From NCBI GenBank assembly GCA_963816145.1, contig CAWFJP010000017.1, positions 224,001 through 288,000 on the forward strand: a stretch of DNA of 64,000 bases, in the 5' to 3' direction. Source of the DNA: an uncultured delta proteobacterium (lineage in GTDB: Bacteria; Desulfobacterota; Binatia; UBA9968). The notes under the pieces are model-generated. The model saw only the letters and a list, made by a program, of their open reading frames with translations, did not search any database and had not been told where the DNA came from. The translations under genes were made by a program, and so were the position numbers. Shown here one piece after another: positions 4,281 to 32,788 of the stretch. How positions within the stretch are numbered: the stretch's first letter is position 1; each line of letters starts with the position of its first letter.

Positions 4281-5072
4281 ATGGAACATCCGTATACATG
4301 GTATAACGCGCTGCCGGAAAGCTTGCAGCATATGTTCGGCGATCACACCTTTTTTGCGTTGATCGCGGCCGTGTTGCTGATACTGTTTGCGCTCAAAGCT
4401 CGTGGCGCCTTGGCGAAGGCCGCTGATCCTTTGGTCCCTGCGGCTGAGCTCGGGTCGAGAAACATCGCTGAGTTGATCGTTCAATTGATCGTCAGCCAGA
4501 GCGATGCGATCATTGGTAAAGCCGGGCGCAAATATGTGCCGTTCTACGGGACTTTTTTCTTCTTTATTCTATTAAGTAATCTAATGGGCCTGTTGCCGGG
4601 CTTCGCACCTCCCACTGGAAATCTAAACACTACTATTGGTCTCGCTTTGGTCTCGTTTATCGGCTACAACTTCATTGCCGTGCGCGAGATGGGTTCGGCT
4701 TATATAAAGGAATTTATCGGTCCGATGACTAGCCTGCCGGGATCGAACTTCATTTCCAAACTGGCGTTCTTGCCGGTCCTGCTACTTTCCGTATGTTTCT
4801 TTTTTATCCTGGAGAGTTTCTCCCACGTCTTTCGCCCGGTGTCGTTATCTTTGCGTCTGTTTGGCAACATGATGGGCGATCATGAAGTCATCGGCGCATT
4901 CATTAGTCTGACTAAACTAGTGGTACCGGTGGCGTTTTACTTCATGGGAACGCTGGTCTCGTTGATTCAAGCTTTTGTATTTACTTTGCTGAGCATGATC
5001 TACGTCGCCTTGGCGATCAGCCATGGCCATGACGAAGAGCATGGGCATGAAGCACAGGGATCACATCACTAA
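4281..5072 (+). CDS. atpB: F0F1 ATP synthase subunit a
   Basis: FFFILLSNLMGLLPG, RPVSLSLRLFGNM, IQAFVFTLLSMIY. Confidence 0.97.
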   Translation: MEHPYTWYNALPESLQHMFGDHTFFALIAAVLLILFALKARGALAKAADPLVPAAELGSRNIAELIVQLIVSQSDAIIGKAGRKYVPFYGTFFFFILLSNLMGLLPGFAPPTGNLNTTIGLALVSFIGYNFIAVREMGSAYIKEFIGPMTSLPGSNFISKLAFLPVLLLSVCFFFILESFSHVFRPVSLSLRLFGNMMGDHEVIGAFISLTKLVVPVAFYFMGTLVSLIQAFVFTLLSMIYVALAISHGHDEEHGHEAQGSHH

Positions 5073-5142
5073 GCGATGGGCCACCGTGGGGAGGATGAGG
5101 ACAGAGGGGTTGTCGGCCGGAATCGCTGGAAAGGAGAAAGAG

Positions 5143-5469
5143 ATGCAGAAATTATTCGCGATTTTCACCGCACTATTAGCAACGCTGATTTCTTCGGGTG
5201 TTGCCATGGCTGCGGCCGAAGGTGGCGCTGCGCCTGGTGACTCGAAAGCCGTAGCGATCGCAATCTCTGCCGGTGTGGCAGTTGCCATCGCCGCCTTTGG
5301 CGCCGCATTGGGCCAGGGCCGCGTCGGTGCCGCTGCCATGGAAAGCATTGGCCGCAATCCGAACGCCGCCGACAAGATCTTCTTGCCGCTGGTGCTGACA
5401 CTGGCGCTGCTTGAAGCTTTGGCGCTTTACGGTTTCGTCATCGCAATTCTCTTGCAAGGCAAGATCTAA
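5143..5469 (+). CDS. atpE: F0F1 ATP synthase subunit c with N-terminal hydrophobic extension
   Basis: GAALGQG...IGRNP...LALLEALALY; AAGGAG RBS before ATG 5143. Confidence 0.95.
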   Translation: MQKLFAIFTALLATLISSGVAMAAAEGGAAPGDSKAVAIAISAGVAVAIAAFGAALGQGRVGAAAMESIGRNPNAADKIFLPLVLTLALLEALALYGFVIAILLQGKI

Positions 5470-5495
5470 CTGCGAGAACGATCCATAGGACACCT

Positions 5496-5530
5496 AAAGG
5501 GTGAGGAGTTTTCTCCTCACCCTTTTTATT
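5496..5530. terminator. Intrinsic terminator between convergent atpE and dCMP deaminase
   Basis: AAAGGGTGAGGAG-TTTT-CTCCTCACCCTTT followed by a T-run. Confidence 0.85.
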
Positions 5531-5548
5531 TGGCTAAAAGGTCGATTC

Positions 5549-6007
5549 CTAGAGCGGCAGGTCAACTTTGTGGAGCTGGACTTGGGTGTAACGGAGGAGT
5601 TCATCCAGAGTGTGCAGCTTGTAGGGCTTGAGGTAGTAAATTTCCTTGATACCGGTGTTGACCAGGACTTTGAGACAGTGGATGCATGGTGTGTGGGTGA
5701 TGTAAATCGCCGCATCCTTTATGTTTGAGCCGTTCTTCGCCGCCTGGGCGATGGCATTCATCTCGGCGTGGATGGTGCGAAAGCAGTTCTGCTCGGTGTC
5801 GCCGTTGGGCGTTTTCGACTCATAAATCAAACAGCCAACGTCGGTGCAATGGGGCATCCCGGCAGGCGCGCCATTGTAACCGGTGGCGAGAATATTTTTG
5901 TCGCGCGCGATTACGGCGCCGACTTTGGCGCGCGAGCAGGTCGACCGCTCGGCCACTTGTAAAGTGATGGTCATGAAGTATTGATCCCAGCTCAACCGTT
6001 CACTCAT
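5549..6007 (-). CDS. dCMP deaminase / ComEB family zinc deaminase
   Basis: WDQYFM...RSTC...VGAV...TGYNG, HAEMNA, PCIHC. Start at MSERLSW. Confidence 0.92.
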   Translation of the reverse strand: MSERLSWDQYFMTITLQVAERSTCSRAKVGAVIARDKNILATGYNGAPAGMPHCTDVGCLIYESKTPNGDTEQNCFRTIHAEMNAIAQAAKNGSNIKDAAIYITHTPCIHCLKVLVNTGIKEIYYLKPYKLHTLDELLRYTQVQLHKVDLPL

Positions 6008-6023
6008 AGTTTCCTCAGCTCTT

Positions 6024-6806
6024 TTACTCTTTGACGGTAACCATGACTTTATCGCCGATTTTCGCCCCGGTCCGCTCCATGACATTACCTTGATTAATAG
6101 CGATTTCGAGCAAGCCCCAACTGTTAAACAGACAGGCAAACTCGCCGGCGCTGACCCCCGCGTAGGTTGTCACCAAGCCGCCCAGCGGGACGCCTTCCAA
6201 ACCGATCTGCAAGCGCTCCATGGGTAGCCCTGTCAAATCACGCTCGCGGATGTTTGTAAATAGATTGCCGAAGCTGTCGGTGTAGATGATTTCACCGTCG
6301 AGCCGTTTTTCGCCTCGGACAATTTGCGGCATAATCAGATTTACTAACGTATCTAGCGGCTTACCGAACGCCGTCGGCGGAACCCCTAAGGATAAGTGGG
6401 CCGCGACCGGAGCAAAAATATCTCGGCCATGAAAAGTCTTGCTGACCTGTTGCAGGTGGAAATCGGCATTGGTTAGTTCGACGATGCAGTCTGGCGGTTG
6501 ACGTTCCAGTGCCAGGCTCAAAACCCCATTATCGGGTCCGACAAAGTAGCTACCATCGTGTTCGAGCAGAATTGGCTTGCGAGCGCCGCCGACCCCTGGG
6601 TCGACGACAACGACGTGAATAGTGCCCACGGCAAAGTGGTGTATCGAGTGCTGGAGGATCAAGGCACCAGCCATAACGTTCTGCGCCGGCACGCCGTGGC
6701 TAAGATCGATGACTTGGGCTTGCGGATTGATCGCGGCGATTACCCCTTTCATGATACCGACGAATGGATCCTGATAGCCAAAATCTGTCGTGAGCGTGAT
6801 CAGCAT
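6024..6806 (-). CDS. DUF62 SAM hydroxide adenosyltransferase (SAM hydrolase; chlorinase/fluorinase family)
   Basis: ITLTTDFG, VVDPGVG..R, GPDNG, TFHGRDIFAP, DSFGNLFTN. The His in TFHGRD is typical of the hydrolase branch. Confidence 0.9.
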   Translation of the reverse strand: MLITLTTDFGYQDPFVGIMKGVIAAINPQAQVIDLSHGVPAQNVMAGALILQHSIHHFAVGTIHVVVVDPGVGGARKPILLEHDGSYFVGPDNGVLSLALERQPPDCIVELTNADFHLQQVSKTFHGRDIFAPVAAHLSLGVPPTAFGKPLDTLVNLIMPQIVRGEKRLDGEIIYTDSFGNLFTNIRERDLTGLPMERLQIGLEGVPLGGLVTTYAGVSAGEFACLFNSWGLLEIAINQGNVMERTGAKIGDKVMVTVKE

Positions 6807-24389: not shown

Positions 24390-26117
24390 ATGGAACCACG
24401 AATTGCGGAACTGTTAGTAAAAGGTGGCATTGTCTCCCGCGAGCAGCTGGTCGAAGCCCACAAAAAAGAGCAAGAAAACAACTCCAGTATTGGCAAGGAA
24501 ATCGTTCGCTTAGGCTTCACTACGGAAGAAGTTCTCGCCGATTTTTTGGCGAAGCAATTCGGCATTGAGTGTGTTGAGCTGGTTCCTACCGACACAGATG
24601 ATGCGGTCTTTTCGGTCGTCCCTCCCCAGATCGTTCAAAAGCACCAAATCATCCCGATCAAGCTGATCGGTTCCAGTTTGACGATTGCGATTGCGGACCC
24701 CACGGATTTAGTCGCCATCAACGAAGTAAAGTTTGTCACCGGTTACGGGGTTCGCTCCGTGATCGCGACTCCAACCGGAATCAAGAAGGTTCTGGATCAT
24801 CGATTTGGCGGAGTCAGTTACGACGATGTCTTAAAAAAATTCGGCGATGGTGAGATGGAGGTCATCCAAGAAAACGACGACGTCAATCTACAAGAACTGC
24901 AACAAGCCACCATGGATGCACCGGTGGTCACGTTGGTCAACGCGATCTTGGCGGACGCCGCCAAACGCCGCTGCAGCGATATCCACATCGAGCCTTACGA
25001 AAAAGTATTTCGGGTGCGATTCCGAATTGACGGGGTGCTCCAGGAAATCATGAGTCCGCCGCTTCGGCTCAAGAACGCCTTGGTTTCGCGTCTGAAAGTC
25101 ATGGCAGGTCTTGATATCGCAGAGCGTCGTTTGACCCAGGACGGCCGCATTAAACTCAAGATGGGTTCAGGCGGCGAGTTAGATATTCGCGTATCCATCT
25201 TGCCCACCCTGTTTGGCGAGAAGGTCGTCATGCGTTTGTTGGACAAGTCCAACCTTCAGCTAGATATGGCTAAGCTAGGTTTCGATCCGCAAAATCTCAA
25301 AGACTTTCAAGACGCCATTCACAAACCTTACGGCATGATCCTGATCACCGGTCCGACCGGTAGCGGTAAATCTACGACACTTTATTCTGCTTTGTCCGAA
25401 CTCAATAAGCCGGACGTGAACATTTCCACCGCAGAAGACCCAGTCGAGTACAATCTGATGGGCATCAATCAAGTGCAGGTCCGAGACCAGATCGGCCTTA
25501 ATTTCGCCGCGGCGTTGCGCTCATTCCTTCGCCAGGACCCGGATATCATTATGGTCGGTGAAATCCGCGATCTTGAAACGGCGCAGATTGCCATTAAAGC
25601 GGCGCTCACCGGCCATCTAGTTTTGAGTACCTTGCATACCAACGATTGCCCCGCGACTGTCGATCGTCTGATCAACATGGGCGTGGAAACTTTTCTATTG
25701 ACCTCCTCAATCAATCTAATTCTAGCCCAGCGGTTAGTCAGGAAAATCTGCGACAAATGTAAGGAGCCGATCGACATCAAACCGGAAGTTCTGATCAATT
25801 TAGGAGTCGATGCTGCCGATATCGGCGCGGGCTTTCCGACATTTCACGGTAAGGGTTGTGCGAATTGCGGCGGCACCGGATACCGTGGGCGATTGGCCGT
25901 TTATGAAGTGATGGTGATGCACGAAGCACTCAAGGAATTAATCATTAAAGGCGTATCATCAATGGAGCTCAAACGTGAGGCGGTAAAATTGGGCATGAGC
26001 ACTCTGCGCATGAGTGCCTTACAGAAGGTCCGTGACGGGTTTACGACAGTCGACGAGACCATTCGTGTCACCGATACGGATAAAGGATTTGGCTCAGTGT
26101 TCTCGTTGGGATTCTAG
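24390..26117 (+). CDS. pilB: Type IV-A pilus assembly ATPase PilB
   Basis: SDIHIEP, GPTGSGKSTT, EDPVE, LRQDPD, GHLVLSTLHTND, CxxC..CxxC. Confidence 0.96.
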   Translation: MEPRIAELLVKGGIVSREQLVEAHKKEQENNSSIGKEIVRLGFTTEEVLADFLAKQFGIECVELVPTDTDDAVFSVVPPQIVQKHQIIPIKLIGSSLTIAIADPTDLVAINEVKFVTGYGVRSVIATPTGIKKVLDHRFGGVSYDDVLKKFGDGEMEVIQENDDVNLQELQQATMDAPVVTLVNAILADAAKRRCSDIHIEPYEKVFRVRFRIDGVLQEIMSPPLRLKNALVSRLKVMAGLDIAERRLTQDGRIKLKMGSGGELDIRVSILPTLFGEKVVMRLLDKSNLQLDMAKLGFDPQNLKDFQDAIHKPYGMILITGPTGSGKSTTLYSALSELNKPDVNISTAEDPVEYNLMGINQVQVRDQIGLNFAAALRSFLRQDPDIIMVGEIRDLETAQIAIKAALTGHLVLSTLHTNDCPATVDRLINMGVETFLLTSSINLILAQRLVRKICDKCKEPIDIKPEVLINLGVDAADIGAGFPTFHGKGCANCGGTGYRGRLAVYEVMVMHEALKELIIKGVSSMELKREAVKLGMSTLRMSALQKVRDGFTTVDETIRVTDTDKGFGSVFSLGF

Positions 26118-26208: not shown

Positions 26209-27435
26209 ATGGCTATTTTCGTTTGGGAAGGGCGAACCGCCCAGGGACGAATCGTCAAAGGTGACACTCTTGAGGCGCCGAATTTAGAAGCCGCATTGGC
26301 GCGTCTTCGCGAGCAACGGATACGCCCCATTGCCAACAAGGTTCGAGAGAAGGGCGCAGGACTCGATAAAGAACTAAGCATCCCCGGATTTGGCCCGACG
26401 GTTTCGACTAAAGAGCTCTCTGTTGCTACCCGGCAGCTAGCGACGATGATCGACGCTGGTCTGCCGATTGTGCAATGCCTCGAAATTCTTGGTGAGCAGT
26501 CCGAGAACAAGCTACTGCGTACTACCATTACTTCCATACGCCGGGACGTTGAAGGTGGTTGTACGCTCGCAGATGCGCTGCGGAAACATCCAAAAATCTT
26601 CGACGAGCTCTACGTCAATATGGTGGAAGCAGGAGAAGCCGGCGGTATACTGAACACAATTCTCAATCGAATTGCTCTGTTCATCGAGAAAGCAAGCAGG
26701 CTAAAAAAGAAGGTCAAGGGCGCAATGATTTACCCGGTTGCCATCGTACTGGTGGCTATCGTTGTGGTCGCCGTCTTGATGATCTTTGTCATCCCAGTAT
26801 TCGCCGAACTCTACGGCAGCATGGGACAAGCACTCCCCGCGCCGACGCAAATCTGTATTAACATCAGTAACTTTTTTGTCGCCTATTGGTGGCTCATGTT
26901 GTTGACAGCCATAGGTGTCGTTACGGCCATCAAGCTCTATTACAAGACCCCGCAGGGTCACATGAAAATCGACGCGCTCCTTTTGCGCATGCCAGTCATC
27001 GGTGACCTGCTCAGAAAAGTTGCGGTGGCGCGGTTTTCTCAGAATATGGCATTACTCTTGAGTTCCGGAGTACCGATCTTGGATGGCCTAGCCATCACGG
27101 GAAAAACCGCTGGTAACAAAGTCGTCGAAAAAGCCATCATGGAGAGCCGGGTTAGTATTAGCAAAGGAAACACAGTAGCGGAGCCCTTGCGTGAAAGCAA
27201 AATATTTCCGCCGCTTGTTTGTCAGATGGTTGCCGTCGGCGAAAGCACCGGCGGGCTCGATGGAATGCTGCGTAAGGTTGCCGAGCTTTACGAAGAAGAG
27301 GTCGATGACGCGGTTAACAATCTTACAGCGATGATGGAACCGGCGATTATGGTGGTGTTGGGGGTGATCCTCGGTGGCTTGGTCGTCGCGATGTATTTGC
27401 CCATCTTTCAGATGGGCTCATTGGTTGGCAATTAG
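26209..27435 (+). CDS. pilC: Type IV pilus platform protein PilC (T2SS F family)
   Basis: RQLATMIDAGLP, AGEAGG.L, GAMIYP, LLSSGVPIL, VGESTG.LD.ML, MYLPIF. Confidence 0.95.
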   Translation: MAIFVWEGRTAQGRIVKGDTLEAPNLEAALARLREQRIRPIANKVREKGAGLDKELSIPGFGPTVSTKELSVATRQLATMIDAGLPIVQCLEILGEQSENKLLRTTITSIRRDVEGGCTLADALRKHPKIFDELYVNMVEAGEAGGILNTILNRIALFIEKASRLKKKVKGAMIYPVAIVLVAIVVVAVLMIFVIPVFAELYGSMGQALPAPTQICINISNFFVAYWWLMLLTAIGVVTAIKLYYKTPQGHMKIDALLLRMPVIGDLLRKVAVARFSQNMALLLSSGVPILDGLAITGKTAGNKVVEKAIMESRVSISKGNTVAEPLRESKIFPPLVCQMVAVGESTGGLDGMLRKVAELYEEEVDDAVNNLTAMMEPAIMVVLGVILGGLVVAMYLPIFQMGSLVGN

Positions 27436-27488
27436 TACGATTTTCAGAACTTCAACACATTAGTCTATCCAACAGAGGAATACCGAGA

Positions 27489-29540
27489 TTGAGTGACGAA
27501 AGAAAAGACCTGAACGAGAAAATCAGGTGGCTACTCCTTCTTCGGGTAGTGATCCTTAGTTTTTTTCTGGGAGCTACGGCTCTCGTCCATTTCTTCCAAG
27601 CGGAATGGGACATTAGGTATCTCATCAGTCTCTCTTTACCGCTGATTCTCGCGTACGCGATTTCGATCGGTTCAGCACTGCTCTTGCCGCGGTTGAAGCA
27701 TCTCCGAGCATTTGCCCATGGGCAGGTAGCTTTGGACGTACTCCTGATCACAGGGATTATCTGGATCACCGGCGATAGCTCTAGCCCGTTTTCTTTTCTT
27801 TACAATCTCGCGGTTATCAACGCAGCGATTTTACTGTTTTATCAAGGCGCGTTAATCGCCGCTGGCATTTCAAGCGTGTGTTACGCAGCGCTTCTTTTGT
27901 GGTCGCATCACTTGCTGCAAAATGGCACCAGTATTCCACTATCGTGGACTGCATTGGTGACGATGGTGATCAACGTCGGCAGTTTCTTCGTAATTGCTGC
28001 GCTGAGTGGATATCTCACGGACAAACTGGGCAAAACGCAGAAGCTGCTACAAGAAAAACAGATAGATTTTCAGGAGCTCGATGCGTTCAAGGAAGCGCTC
28101 TTGCAAGGCATCGGTAGCGGCGTAGCTATCACCGATAGTCAGGGGCGAATCAACTATTTTAATCAGCAAGCGCAGAATTTAACCTCGCTTGGCGAGGCGG
28201 ATGTGATTGGAAAACGGCTCGACCAAATCTTCCCTGGATTACAATTCGATTTCCAGCGTGGCGGCCGTAGCGGTGCCGTCTTCAACGAAGAGCTTCCGTT
28301 ACCTGGTTTACAAGGAGTCCCAAAACAAGTGCGTTTGACGCTGGCCCCGCTCAGTGATTCTGACGAACAGCTTCTCGGGTATGTTTCTATTTTCGAGGAC
28401 ATCACAAAACAAAAACAGATCGAAGAAAAAGTTCGGATCGAGGAAGAACTGCGCAGATCGCGGGAAGTCGAATTACAGGTACCTTCCATTGGATTTGACG
28501 ACGTGCCTTTTCGCTTCGAAGGAGTCGTGGGTAAAAGCGGCGGCATGGAAAAGATTTGCCAGCTCATTCAAAAAGTTGCGGTGAGCAGCACTAACGTTTT
28601 GATCTCTGGTGAAAGCGGGACGGGTAAGGAGCTGGTTGCGAGAGCGGTTCACTTAAACGGGCCTCGGCAAAACAAACCCTTCGTGGGAGTCAATTGCGGT
28701 GCCATCCCGGAAACGCTGATCGAGAGTGAATTATTTGGCCATGTGCGAGGGGCCTTTACCGGTGCGGTGGCGGATCACAGTGGGTTATTCAAACAAGCCG
28801 ACCAGGGAACCATATTTCTCGACGAAGTGGGCGAATTGCCGCTGCATCTCCAAGTAAAACTCTTGCGCATTTTGCAAGAGAAAACCTTCACGCCGGTCGG
28901 CGCCAGTAAACCTGTTAAGGTCGATGTGCGCGTGATTTCTGCGACCAACCGGGATTTGCGAAAGGAATTGGAAGAAGGCAGATTTCGCGAGGATCTTTTT
29001 TATCGGCTAAATGTAGTCAACATGGTCTTACCGCCACTGCGCAGCCGGAAAGAAGATATTCCTTCCCTCGCCCACTATTTTTTACGGAAATTTGCGGCTT
29101 CCCTCAACAAGAATGTCGAAGAAATCTCCAGCGGTGCCCTTATGCAGCTGATGAATCACACTTATCCGGGAAACGTCCGGGAGTTGGAAAACATCATTGA
29201 GCATGCAGTGGCGATAACCAACAAAAATATCGTCACGGAAGAAGATCTGCCGCAGCAACTGAGAGGTAAGACGATCATCAACGATAGCAATGTATTCGAG
29301 CAAACCGCGCCTGGCGGTGCCGAGGTATTCTTTGACAAGGGACTCTCTCTGGATGTGGAGCTAGAGACTCACGAGAAATGCATTTTGCTGGGAGCTCTCA
29401 AGCGCGCCAACGGAGTCCAGAAGAAGGCGGCGGAAATGCTAGGTATCAATTACCGGTCGCTGCGTCACCGCTTGGAAAAATACGACCTTCTAGGAGCAAA
29501 AAATCATTCTTTTTCTGAACAAACGAATAATACCGAGTAA
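27489..29540 (+). CDS. Membrane-anchored sigma54 activator: PilS-like TM sensor + PAS fused to PilR-like AAA+ and Fis HTH
   Basis: About 6 TM N-terminus with PilS-type TG...SPF.FLY; PAS ([15 protein letters not shown]...FEDIT); then [47 protein letters not shown]. Sits at the pilS-pilR position. No H-box, HATPase or receiver visible. Confidence 0.88.
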
Positions 29541-29735
29541 CAAATTTTGTCACACCACCAATGTCCGCATTCCGTAAACTTGAATCTCATCCCTAACCAG
29601 AGCGCCTCTCATCGTTCAATTCAATCACAGACAGAACTTCTAACCTGTTGGAATTATGTGATTTCACTCAATTGTGACCGGAGTATTGACGAGATTCTTC
29701 CAACTTCAGACCATCATTTTAATTCAGCCATTGTT

Positions 29736-29751
29736 TGGCCTTTCAATTGCT
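29736..29751 (+). promoter_or_regulatory. Sigma54 (-24/-12) promoter of pilA
   Basis: TGGCCTTTCAATTGCT = GG-N10-GC, between the activator gene and the pilin. Confidence 0.75.
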
Positions 29752-29898
29752 TTAGTCGTGATTCAACGTTTTGAATCTTATAACAACTATGCGCAAGGAG
29801 GTGGCGATCGACGGCATAGAAGCCATGACAACGGATTGTTTCAGAATCGGAAAATCGTCTCAGAGTAACGGTACTTTACGAAAGGGAGTTGTCTAAAG

Positions 29899-30278
29899 AT
29901 GAAAAAGTTACGTTTGCAAAGTGATGCAGGTTTTACCTTGATCGAATTGTTGGTGGTAGTTGCCATCATAGGTATATTGGCGGCCATCGCGATTCCCCAG
30001 TTCGCGGCTTACAGAAAGCGCGGTCATGAGGCACAGATTAAGTCCGACTTGAGAAACGCTGCGGTCGCGGAGGAGGCATACTTCGCAGCAAATTCGGTCT
30101 ATAAAGCAGGTACAATGACCTCGGGTACACCCGCAGGTTTCAACGCCACTACCGGAGTCACTGTAGTTTCAGCAATCGGACTAACACTTTCCAGTTGACC
30201 GCACTCATACGAATTGTTCTGGAAGTACTGGACTCGAGCAGTACCGGCCAGATCACCGCCAACCAGGCCTGTCAGTAA
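29899..30278 (+). CDS. pilA: Type IV-A major pilin (C-terminus apparently frameshifted in this sequence)
   Basis: Prepilin G|[24 protein letters not shown]. The ORF stops at 30198, but shifted frames continue as NTFQLTA / HTNCSGST / [13 protein letters not shown] (stop 30276-30278) with a Cys pair, ending just before a terminator. Confidence 0.9.
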
Positions 30279-30300
30279 CACTGTTTAGCAGTTGATGAAC

Positions 30301-30340
30301 AAAAAAGGGGGTGGCTCTTACGAACCACCCCCTTTTTTCT
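30301..30340 (+). terminator. Intrinsic terminator after pilA
   Basis: AAAAAAGGGGGTGG-loop-CCACCCCCTTTTTT. Confidence 0.85.
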
Positions 30341-30400
30341 ATCTCATTTTTTCCAAGACAGGCAATTAATTATGAGTTCGAGAGTGGCAAAGGGTCCGCA

Positions 30401-32788
30401 TTGAAATCTAAGCGATTAGAAATAGGGGCAGTTGTCGTAGTAATAGCCTGCCTCTTGTGGTTTTGTCAGGATCTGGTCTTTGATGGCGAGGTGCCGTTTT
30501 ATCGCGACTTAACCAATTATTTCTATCCGTTGCGTCATAGCCTATGGGAGAGCTTCCGAATTGGCGATCTTGGTCTCTGGAATCGCCATTTTGCTCAAGG
30601 CTTTCCAAACCTCGCCGCTTTTCAGACCGGGGTATTTTATCCACCGCACTGGACTTTTTTGGTTTTACCCTTATATGCGTCGCTTCGCACACTTTTTATT
30701 TTTCATTTCCTAGTTGCTGGTTTGGGTAGTTATTTGTTGCTACGGCGTGGGCACTACAGCACGACTGGGCAAATCATCGGGGCCCGTTGTTTCCCTTAGG
30801 CGGGATAGTGGTTTCACTAACCAACCTTCTCAATCATTTCCAATCAGCAGTCTGGCTCCCATGGCTTCTAGTCACATGGGAGCGGTTACTGCTTTCGCCA
30901 CGGTGGCGTTGTTTCGTCGACTTTACCCTGATTGCGTCACTGCAGTTCCTAGCCGGGTCGCCGGAGATCACCGCCCTGAGCATGTTTCTAGCGCTGGTCA
31001 AAGGATTTTCACTTCGTCCATCACAAACGCAAATTACTTCGGGCCGGATAATTGGCTTCGCGATCCTTGGTAACATAGTCATGCTGAGCTTGATTATGGT
31101 CCAAGTTCTGCCGACCGTGGAACTTATCTTAGAGTCCCGGCGCGGTCATTCAATCCCGGCATCTGAGTCATTCATGTGGTCGCTTGAGCCGCTGAGTTTG
31201 ATCAATCTATTTTTGCCTGACAGTGAAGTTGATCGTTCTATCGGCGTTGGAATTGTCTATTATTTTGGCCGAAAAGTACCGCTCTTTTTATCCATGTATT
31301 TGGGACTTATTAGCCTCTACGGAATCGCCTTATGGATGTACTATAGCGCACGCCGGGAAATCATCGCTTTGACCTTCCTGATTTTAATGTCATTGGCGCT
31401 CGCCATGGGGGGTAACGCCCTAGTATATCCGTTCTTTTTCCATTATCTGCCGTTTCTCTCCGCGGTCCGTTTCCCAGAAAAATTTTTCTTTATTGCCAAC
31501 GCACTTTTGATCGTGGTCAGCTTGAGCGGATTACAGAGTTTCCTGATGGACGACTCCAAGAGAATGAAAGGGGCGCCGGTTATTCTTGGTACGATTTGTT
31601 TGAGCTGGCTCGGTTTGTATCTCTATCTAAACTTCCATTCGGAGATACTTAGCAATTTTATTGCGCTCAGTTATCGAGACGCAGCATCCCCAAAAGGGAT
31701 CGGTGATTTGACGATCGGCGCTTTGACGAACATACAACGACAGGTAATTTTGTCCTTCGCGATTTTGTTTCTACTGTTGTTCACCAAAACAGGCAAAATA
31801 CGACCTGTCCTATTTTCCGTGTTGCTGGTTGCGGTGGTTTACGTCGACCTCACCTGGGCGCATAAGAGTTATCTCTTTCCGGTCCATCCTGAAAAACTCT
31901 TGGCGTCGCCGCCCATTATTGACCCAGCGCAGACCCAACAAACCAGATTATTCTATTATCCCTCAGCAAATGATCTTCACCCAGCGTATTTAACCGTACG
32001 CGGTCAGCCGACTTTTGAACAAGCAGTCGCGCTCTCGTATCAAAATTACCTGCCCAATGTTGGCACGCTCTACGGCATCGACTATTTTCAAGAAATTGAC
32101 GCGCTCGGTCGGCGCGACTATAGCGATTTCCTGAAGGTAGCTAACGGCCTGCCGTTGGAGGGGCAAATAAAATTGCTCGGTACGTTTAATGTAAAATATC
32201 TGGTTAGTTTCCGTAATTTGCCGGAGCGAGATATTCACCTAGTGCGCCGGTTCCCGCAATACCTCTCATGGCTTTATGAGATCAAGTCGGTTGTGCCACG
32301 GGCATATATCGTCACCAAATTTTCTGTGGAAAAGGAATCGGTAAAAATTTTGCAGCGGCTCTCCGTTAAAGACTTTGATCCACTAAGGGAAGTTGTCCTC
32401 GATTCAGATGTTTCACTTGTTCCGCCGGCTTCGTCTTCTGCTCGGGTTGACATTCAGCGCTACGAAAATAGCATAGTTACCATCGTTACGGCGACCTGGC
32501 GAAAGCATTTTAGTTTTGGCAGATTCCTTCTATCCGGGCTGGAAGGCATATGTGGATGGTACTGAGACCGCAATTCTTCGCGCCAATCACTTCTATCGGG
32601 CCGTGCGATTACCTAGTGGAGTACATCAAGTCGAATTTCGCTACGAACCTCGGTCGTTCATGATTGGCGCGATGATTTCACTGGCCACTCTGATTGTGAT
32701 GATTTTGATATCGATCCGCCTGTTCGTGCGACAGCGCAAATGTGCCCCCTCGCGCGTTGTCGCTTCTGTAGAAATGCTGCAAATTTAA
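30401..32788 (+). CDS. YfhO-family multi-TM GT-C glycosyltransferase-like protein, split by frameshifts (~30770-30790, ~32500)
   Basis: Three consecutive ORF pieces: RDL..YFYP/LWN....GFP...Q.GVFYP; QFLAGSP...LP..EL; DSFYPGWKAYVDG...RANHFYRAV.LPSG.HQVEFRYEP. Confidence 0.75.

Follow-up and report, generated by a model that had tools for sequence, protein, structure and literature searches.

A PilS-type membrane sensor fused to a PilR-type sigma-54 activator, a probable phosphorylation-free regulator of the pilin gene in Binatia

Introduction

Can a pilin gene be controlled by a PilS-PilR system whose two proteins have become one polypeptide, with neither the kinase core nor the receiver domain? 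This question is raised by a gene in a 64,000-nt stretch of DNA (positions 224,001 to 288,000 of contig CAWFJP010000017.1, assembly GCA_963816145.1; in the following called the window) from an uncultured soil bacterium, a delta proteobacterium of the lineage Desulfobacterota, Binatia, UBA9968. Between pilC and a pilin open reading frame (ORF), in the position that a preliminary description of this DNA had recognized as the pilS-pilR slot, the ORF list of the window has a single unbroken frame of 683 amino acids (aa) with a TTG start, as that description stated. It joins the membrane sensor of PilS to the activator half of PilR, and the resulting protein probably switches on the pilin gene from the membrane without a phosphorylation step.

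The step that leads from intramembrane pilin contact to the output of PilS is still open, and classically it is hidden behind the balance of kinase and phosphatase activities. The same sensor driving an AAA+ activator directly would be a simpler read-out and a natural minimal form of pilin-responsive control. Soil and wetland metagenomes commonly contain the family, whose members automatic annotation there calls 'response regulator PilR'. A full-text literature search, covering neither the supplement of PMC10269533 nor that of PMC6615313, either of which might list such architectures, returned no description of the fused family or of a membrane-integral enhancer-binding protein. The terms 'sigma-54', 'sigma54', 'HTH_8' and 'enhancer' are absent from the main text of the survey of transmembrane (TM) regulators in PMC10269533.

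Results

A PilS-type sensor and a PilR-type activator in one frame

Pfam searches with the window protein returned, in this order, the 6TM_PilS membrane domain, a PAS domain, Sigma54_activat (residues 347-512), AAA_lid_14 (residues 518-595) and the Fis-type helix-turn-helix (HTH) domain HTH_8 (Table 1). Together with the motif conservation described below, this bears out the earlier reading of a PilS-type TM and PAS region joined to an AAA+ domain with Walker A and B, GAFTGA and arginine fingers, and to a Fis-type HTH. The PAS domain aligns unbroken to the PAS domain of classical PilS. The same searches, which the preliminary description had proposed, also agree with its statement that H-box, HATPase and receiver are absent: HisKA, HATPase_c and Response_reg had no match in the fused protein at an expectation value (E) ≤ 0.1. 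The 38 residues between PAS and AAA+ are too few to hide any of these three domains, and the linker of the window protein contains no histidine. Among the NCBIfam models there were sub-threshold matches to sigma-54 activators alone, the best one to PrdR (379.7 bits against a cut-off of 795), with residues 183-666 of the fused protein aligned to model positions 118-577.

In the genome from which the window comes (7.8 Mb, 99.5% complete, 6.7% contamination) the fused gene is the only match to 6TM_PilS, and there are one rpoN gene and 34 strong matches to Sigma54_activat. By its Walker A, Walker B and GAFTGA motifs, together with rpoN and the -24/-12 element described below, the protein is classified among the sigma-54 activators. 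It has the features of the PilS sensor and lacks the HisKA/DHp histidine and HATPase_c, and is accordingly not a kinase. Judged as a PilR, its AAA+/HTH half is orthologous and encoded before pilA, and the receiver aspartate is missing.

The motifs on which this classification is based are strongly conserved. Across 46 fused homologues of 40-96% identity, Walker A (G374-E381), Walker B (D445/E446), R500, R506, R564 and several HTH positions are invariant or conserved to at least 90%, and in the GAFTGA loop, exact at residues 421-426 of the window protein, G421, T424, G425 and A426 are invariant and A422 and F423 conserved to at least 90%. In the sensor half, 19 positions are at least 85% conserved in both the fused proteins (28 sequences) and classical PilS (36 sequences). 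Within the membrane part, the TM1 arginine R19 and 13 other positions are common to the two groups, R19 being invariant in the fused proteins (28/28) and present in 35/36 classical PilS.

An AlphaFold2 model computed from the 46-row alignment (mean predicted local distance difference test score, pLDDT, 79.9; predicted template modelling score 0.46) has membrane helices at residues 2-37, 42-68, 72-94, 100-143 and 153-207 and a PAS fold that extends to residue 304. Co-folding of the TM domain (residues 1-200) with the mature pilin (residues 12-99) scored 0.00 in two runs without folded controls, a result that speaks neither for nor against binding.

The junction is intact and the gene is under purifying selection

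Fourteen public runs, all of them soil or wetland metagenomes, hold at least half of the sampled words of positions 27400-30400. In each of three DNA runs from three studies, one of which may be the sample of origin of the window, a single contig bridges the junction region 28390-28520 without a gap (Table 1). The fused ORF is therefore not an assembly artefact, and the mis-assembly at the junction that the preliminary description had to reckon with was not found in these contigs.

The three contigs differ from the window at 25 positions within the ORF, of which 19 are synonymous and six non-synonymous. All 11 differences in residues 345-683 are synonymous, as are six of the ten in residues 1-310. 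Two of the six non-synonymous changes, at residues 334 and 340, lie in the linker and are the only ones outside the sensor. This excess of synonymous changes is the pattern of purifying selection on the fused gene.

The fused form is conserved across genera

Of 8000 candidates scored in a search with residues 1-345, 626 proteins had E ≤ 0.001. Among these, every one of the 120 listed carries both PF25323 and PF00158, at 64-100% identity and mostly with 676-720 aa, and no kinase or receiver family was found on any of the 120. NCBI names the listed relatives as 'Candidatus Binatia bacterium' proteins and JGI as 'response regulator PilR'; the latter label is wrong, since the defining feature, the receiver domain, is missing. 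The 24 genomes that were examined individually have the same fused layout. In a library clustered at 50% identity, the 150 best relatives of the sensor half include ten with the sigma-54 half (nine full-length, one fragment), and Pfam gave the fused layout for all nine full-length proteins. The other 31 library proteins scanned include 29 classical kinases of 533-634 aa with the order 6TM_PilS-PAS-HisKA-HATPase_c. A further library protein, P0225 (751 aa), joins a PilS-type 6TM and PAS to a beta-lactamase-fold domain and DUF3471, which is another swap of the output.

Among 150 sampled genomes of the window's class, a single open frame holds both halves at all 19 best loci (one of them, L023, is truncated and another, L020, stops at a contig end). 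Counted by family of genomes, 6TM_PilS is present in 8/8, 8/8, 17/17, 8/8, 5/5, 3/3 and 16/18 genomes of seven families and was found in 0/8, 0/2, 0/7, 0/17 and 0/4 genomes of five others; the strongest matches sit in frames of at least 676 aa. Across 200 sampled genomes of the phylum, full-length matches were limited to four others (G026, G036, G076 and G020), with 41-44% identity. A private deletion in this genome, the other weak point that had been considered, was not found either: the fusion is kept across many genera of the class, and separate pilS and pilR genes occur in other lineages only. The full-length fused form is a conserved and apparently functional one-polypeptide PilS-PilR.

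Two irregular cases were seen. At locus L037 (G319:C6, positions 4468-6557) the fused gene is broken into three ORFs of 587, 169 and 109 aa by decay to a pseudogene or by sequencing errors, and the pilin ORF and the sigma-54 element are kept. Genome G251, which belongs to the window's genus and is 98% complete, has weak PAS-type and 6TM matches only (E 2e-6 and 7e-4); two other genomes of the genus carry the fused gene, and G251 may have lost the locus.

The two halves derive from PilS and PilR

Genomes from other families of the phylum match the C-terminal half best with a receiver-AAA+-HTH regulator whose gene lies beside that of a PilS-like kinase. In six of the seven classical loci (L008-L014, identical to L055-L061) the regulator gene is downstream of pilS, and in L057 it is upstream. 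Six of the seven have the order pilC, pilS (530-599 aa) and pilR (457-487 aa), in the same slot as the fusion. The fused protein aligns to about residues 14-340 of PilS and to about residues 139-460 of PilR. The fused proteins track PilS as far as the D-I-T motif that ends the PAS domain, beyond which the classical H-box has no counterpart; from that motif on, the window protein tracks the linker between receiver and AAA+ of PilR, with 46 against 47 residues and one single-residue gap. Both the PilS PAS domain and the PilR receiver have a similar motif at their ends, D-x-I-T-K/R followed by an acidic pair. Since the two ends share this motif, the join would most simply have arisen by an in-frame deletion between two similar stretches. 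We also considered a 6TM domain added to a pre-existing PAS-AAA+ activator and rejected it, as the PAS domain aligns to that of PilS and the C-terminal half to PilR.

The number of such events was addressed with two trees. The sensor-half tree of 28 fused and 36 classical rows, from which L037 (broken) and L053 (over-extended start) were left out, has five changes of state. A single fused clade was not rejected by the approximately unbiased test (p 0.683), the constrained tree being better by 9.93 log-likelihood units. Four fused proteins that come from outside the window's class or are of unknown origin (L054, L044, P0144 and P0165) have classical PilR as the best matches of their C-terminal halves, and in the C-half tree they group with seven classical PilR proteins at 99% support in the Shimodaira-Hasegawa-like approximate likelihood ratio test; this tree forces only one change. 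Given their starred branches, both trees remain compatible with one origin.

A sigma-54 promoter and an upstream motif recur behind the fused gene

The GG-N10-GC promoter element reported to follow the fused gene was found (Table 1). When at least 8 of 11 specified positions were required with GG and GC fixed, 18 of 21 loci have such a -24/-12 element at most 300 nt after the stop codon of the fused gene; from the upstream coding DNA of the same loci, 0.09 per 300 nt would be expected. A window-wide scan for the sigma-54 consensus with two mismatches gave 79 sites against 66 expected (8 of 100 shuffles were as high) and is uninformative alone, so that the promoter assignment rests on the conservation across loci. 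On the + strand of 27300-30900 no sigma-70-like promoter was found.

The stretch from the stop codon to the -24 element contains TTGTCA in 12 of 18 loci (0.05 expected) and TGTCA in 15 of 18 (0.145 expected), at sites 82-193 bp upstream of the promoter. The TTGTCA-type motif is palindromic in five loci, and control DNA had none. In the window it forms part of a candidate upstream activator site, an imperfect palindrome recognized by eye and by pattern search; an inverted-repeat search of 29500-29900 at seed 6 found nothing. The 15-base palindrome pattern that we searched for has its sole exact copy in the whole genome here. With one mismatch allowed there is one extra site, inside an ORF and with no sigma-54 element near, and this genome-wide pattern search found no regulon. 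The classical locus L059, in which pilA follows pilR, has a strong -24/-12 element and similar upstream motifs.

In the one RNA run used, metatranscriptome library X15, a 521-nt contig covers 29800-30113 and another 29261-29486, and 29521-29722 is uncovered; parts of the fused gene without cover in this run say nothing. The contig over pilA is a weak hint of expression. A sigma-54-dependent activation of pilA is predicted from rpoN and the conserved cis elements.

The pilus locus and its neighbours

In all 20 fetched related loci the order is pilB, often a second, pilT-like ATPase gene, pilC and the fusion, with pilC directly upstream of the fused gene, and in 15 of the 20 the next gene is a pilin ORF. 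The coordinates of the window features are collected in Table 1.

The pilin ORF that had been noted after the fused gene is present and its mature product has E5 and P22, but it is cut short by frameshifts: compared with its closest orthologue (L035, 84% identical over the aligned part), its 3′ part is out of frame, with single-base gaps near 30178 and 30203 and a further shift (region 30104-30300). In three DNA runs and one RNA run, the sequence departs from that of the window at 30113, and the alternative is identical in all four. The 3′ region of pilA is therefore either variable among strains or mis-assembled in the window.

The large, conserved membrane protein encoded next has no Pfam match. 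It is a single ORF of 704-778 aa in six relatives, and the two window ORFs (162 and 592 aa) match residues 1 to about 150 and about 150-730 of these. The ORF at 32740-33546 matches PMT_2 (GT-C glycosyltransferase), and both genes may form a pilin-modification module. At the other end of the window, dnaA adjoins the most AT-rich 2 kb (GC content 0.466), about 28 kb from the pilus locus. With the position of the origin taken from dnaA, the earlier placing of pilA about 29 kb from oriC is plausible.

Table 1 Features of the window and contigs that bridge the junction.
Feature	Position	Strand	Basis
Fused pilS-pilR gene	27489..29540	+	683-aa ORF; Pfam domains; gap-free spanning contigs from three DNA runs
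PilS-type six-helix membrane sensor, residues 4-186	27498..28046	+	6TM_PilS PF25323, 54.6 bits against a cut-off of 27
PAS domain, residues 200-309, D-I-T motif at its end	28086..28415	+	PAS_9, PAS and PAS_4 matches
Junction/linker, residues 307-344, PilS/PilR join site	28407..28520	+	Alignment to PilS and PilR
Sigma-54 AAA+ domain and lid, residues 347-595	28527..29273	+	PF00158 E 6e-72; PF25601 E 1e-25
Fis-type HTH (HTH_8) DNA-binding domain, residues 625-665	29361..29483	+	PF02954 E 2.7e-11
Candidate upstream activator site, imperfect 17-bp palindrome over the stop codon	29537..29553	.	Motif recurs in related loci
Sigma-54 -24/-12 element	29736-29751	+	GG at 29737-38, GC at 29749-50; 8/11 specified consensus bases
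pilB, type IV pilus assembly ATPase	24390..26117	+	Pfam T2SSE E 3e-143 and MshEN
pilC, platform protein	26209..27435	+	Pfam T2SSF E 2.5e-65
pilA, type IV pilin, 99-aa ORF, 3′ part frameshifted	29899..30198	+	N_methyl motif; NF041775 PilA
Large membrane protein gene after pilA, split in two ORFs	30311..32565	+	ORFs 30311-30799 and 30787-32565
dnaA	603-2030	-	Bac_DnaA E 4e-74
Contig over the junction, X1 record 4	27719-30113		10 letters differ from the window
Contig over the junction, X2 record 17	27400-30113		18 letters differ from the window
Contig over the junction, X3 record 23	27490-29956		17 letters differ from the window

Discussion

Taken as a whole, these results are best explained, with somewhat better than even confidence on our part, by the collapse of an ancestral pair into a membrane-borne, phosphorylation-free sigma-54 activator of pilA that is gated by pilin. 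In an ancestral pilS-pilR pair, the PilS kinase core and the PilR receiver would have been lost, so that the membrane sensor and PAS domain of PilS came to be followed by the linker, the sigma-54 AAA+ domain and the Fis-type HTH of PilR. The fused protein would sit in the inner membrane and bind the palindrome that overlaps its own stop codon, and its AAA+ oligomer would remodel the RNA polymerase-sigma-54 complex at the -24/-12 promoter about 190 bp downstream, driving pilA. Because phosphotransfer is impossible in such a protein, the sensor half must act directly on the AAA+ half. By analogy with the classical system, the most likely signal would be the inner-membrane pilin pool, sensed through the TM residues conserved with classical PilS, and the most likely effect a control of AAA+ self-assembly in which excess pilin holds the activator off, as a negative feedback. 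The available text of PMC6528607 gives R24 of Pseudomonas aeruginosa PilS and E5 and P22 of PilA as residues that matter for the interaction of the two proteins; the pilin of the window has E5 and P22, and R19 is a candidate counterpart of R24. The palindrome stands at the end of a gene for a membrane protein, and pilC and pilA encode membrane proteins as well, so that the locus may already be at the membrane during coupled transcription, translation and insertion. The fused protein would be an example of an enhancer-binding protein that has to form its oligomer and reach its promoter from within the membrane, and it shows how a single in-frame deletion can turn a two-component system into a one-component system.

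We tentatively advance a more specific version, to which we give clearly less credence. In it the AAA+ ring would assemble or not according to the amount of pilin among the TM helices, intramembrane contact would be converted into an open complex without phosphorylation, and pilA would be transcribed at the membrane. The join would have been made at the shared D-x-I-T-K/R motif and could have arisen repeatedly, given that the sensor and activator halves of the four members from other lineages both fall with their classical PilS and PilR counterparts.

Several observations weigh against our best explanation, a pilin-gated activator. The organism is uncultured, and the mechanism is a prediction from sequence and model. 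The 99-aa pilA ORF of the window lacks, through its frameshift, the C-terminal part that bears the cysteine pair, and three loci of one family (L039, L042 and L053, in G287, G218 and G311) have the fused gene after pilC with neither a pilin ORF nor a -24/-12 element downstream. The palindrome pattern with one mismatch has no more matches in the genome than a reversed control, and the RNA contigs can neither show a transcription start nor rule out DNA in the library. The linker, finally, had been described as short, helical and leading straight into the AAA+ domain. A helix at residues 306-327 is indeed predicted, but it is not continued as one helix, since pLDDT falls below 50 at residues 327-339 before the AAA+ domain. 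Over the 46 homologues the linker is 10-39 residues long; its first half is charged and conserved in the window's own family, and in other families it is short, acidic and proline-rich. Being so variable and in part disordered, the linker speaks against rigid helical transmission throughout the family and is more compatible with a control exerted by the oligomeric state of the membrane part. In the three loci without a pilin, we observed a different membrane-protein-like ORF downstream of the fused gene.

These three loci also bear on the alternative that survives best, in which the same fused protein activates pilA but its sensor reads a cue other than pilin, such as a small molecule bound by the PAS domain or the redox or membrane state, the feedback by pilin having been lost. 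A complete PAS domain is kept in every member, and the available text of PMC6528607 does not define what the PAS domain of PilS senses. Nevertheless, we regard this as unlikely: the membrane domain conserves the same positions as classical PilS, the invariant TM1 arginine among them, E5 and P22 are retained in the pilin, and a pilin follows the gene in three quarters of the related loci (15/20).

The linker and the missing receiver could also be taken to mean that the activator is not gated at all, the membrane domain being an anchor for the protein and perhaps for the locus, with pilA set by the amount of protein. Activators without a regulatory domain exist, for example PspF, and a flexible linker of variable length would suit them. 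Conservation of 19 sensor positions with classical PilS over 64 sequences and the six synonymous changes among the ten strain differences in residues 1-310 are hard to reconcile with a mere anchor, and nearly every protein of the window's own family has a linker of exactly 38 residues; we consider an ungated activator improbable. To the same low degree we would credit a sequestered activator, held at the membrane until a protease cuts the exposed linker and a soluble AAA+-HTH fragment activates pilA. The low-confidence segment before the AAA+ domain, acidic, proline-rich and variable among families, could be such a target, and both non-synonymous strain changes outside the sensor fall in the linker. 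Yet one member has a linker of just 10 residues, neither a protease gene nor a conserved cleavage motif was seen at the locus, and an upstream site at the end of the gene, among genes for membrane proteins, would make action from the membrane feasible without any release. The gene might, finally, be a decaying and functionless relic of a two-component system. The frameshifted pilA and next gene of the window and the three ORFs of L037 could suggest this, and there is a precedent in the gonococcal Rsp, a fusion of pilS and pilR homologues that the available text of PMC6528607 calls a remnant with no apparent role in pilE transcription. This alternative is already close to refuted, because the full-length form extends to homologues of about 40% identity without variation in any ATPase motif, the strain changes comprise 19 synonymous and 6 non-synonymous ones, all sampled genomes of five families (8/8, 8/8, 17/17, 8/8 and 5/5) have it, and promoter and upstream motif are conserved.

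The pilin-gated, membrane-borne activator that we favour is a variant of the known PilS-PilR system and not a new kind of system. It shares with the PilS-PilR system of the P. aeruginosa type the slot after pilC, a homologous 6TM and PAS region with the same conserved residues, a homologous AAA+/HTH half and a sigma-54 promoter before pilA, and differs from it in being a fusion without DHp/H-box, without the ATP-binding kinase domain and without the receiver aspartate. With two proteins in one polypeptide, the activator becomes membrane-integral and is placed beyond control by phosphorylation.

The closest precedent is Rsp, whose original source is said to be Carrick et al. in 2000. Rsp likewise has a PilS-type membrane N-terminus and a PilR-type C-terminus in one ORF, as far as it can be compared by its description in the available texts. 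According to the available text of PMC6528607 it is a fusion of nps (pilS) and npa (pilR), a species-specific remnant with no apparent role in pilE transcription, and Nps is said to be without a PAS domain; according to that of PMC10269533 it is a chimera of the membrane part of PilS and the DNA-binding part of PilR that represses pilA. The two sources thus disagree on its function, as a pilA repressor or as a protein without apparent role in pilE transcription. Rsp differs from the family described here, which spans many genera with intact motifs and cis elements, in being such a species-specific remnant.

Among one-component enhancer-binding proteins, those of the PrdR type have the same PAS domain, sigma-54 AAA+ domain and Fis-type HTH without a receiver. 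Most regulatory domains of 431 clostridial activators are without TM regions in the available text of PMC6615313. PrdR-type proteins differ from the fusion in being soluble, and the fusion scores far under the PrdR cut-off. In NtrC1 and DctD, the linker between receiver and AAA+ domain exerts negative control on AAA+ assembly and holds the off state. The window protein appears to keep the corresponding PilR linker (46 against 47 residues), but in the fusion a PAS domain on a membrane sensor stands upstream of it in place of a phosphorylatable receiver, and in other families of the fusion, in contrast, the linker is not conserved. With ToxR, CadC and TcpP, finally, the fused protein shares a DNA-binding polypeptide that spans the membrane, so that the target locus must meet the membrane. 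It has neither the OmpR-type winged helix nor the single-pass topology of the ToxR-like proteins, and the likeness is functional only: instead, the fusion has six N-terminal TM helices, a Fis-type HTH and the ATP-driven ring mechanism predicted of a sigma-54 activator.

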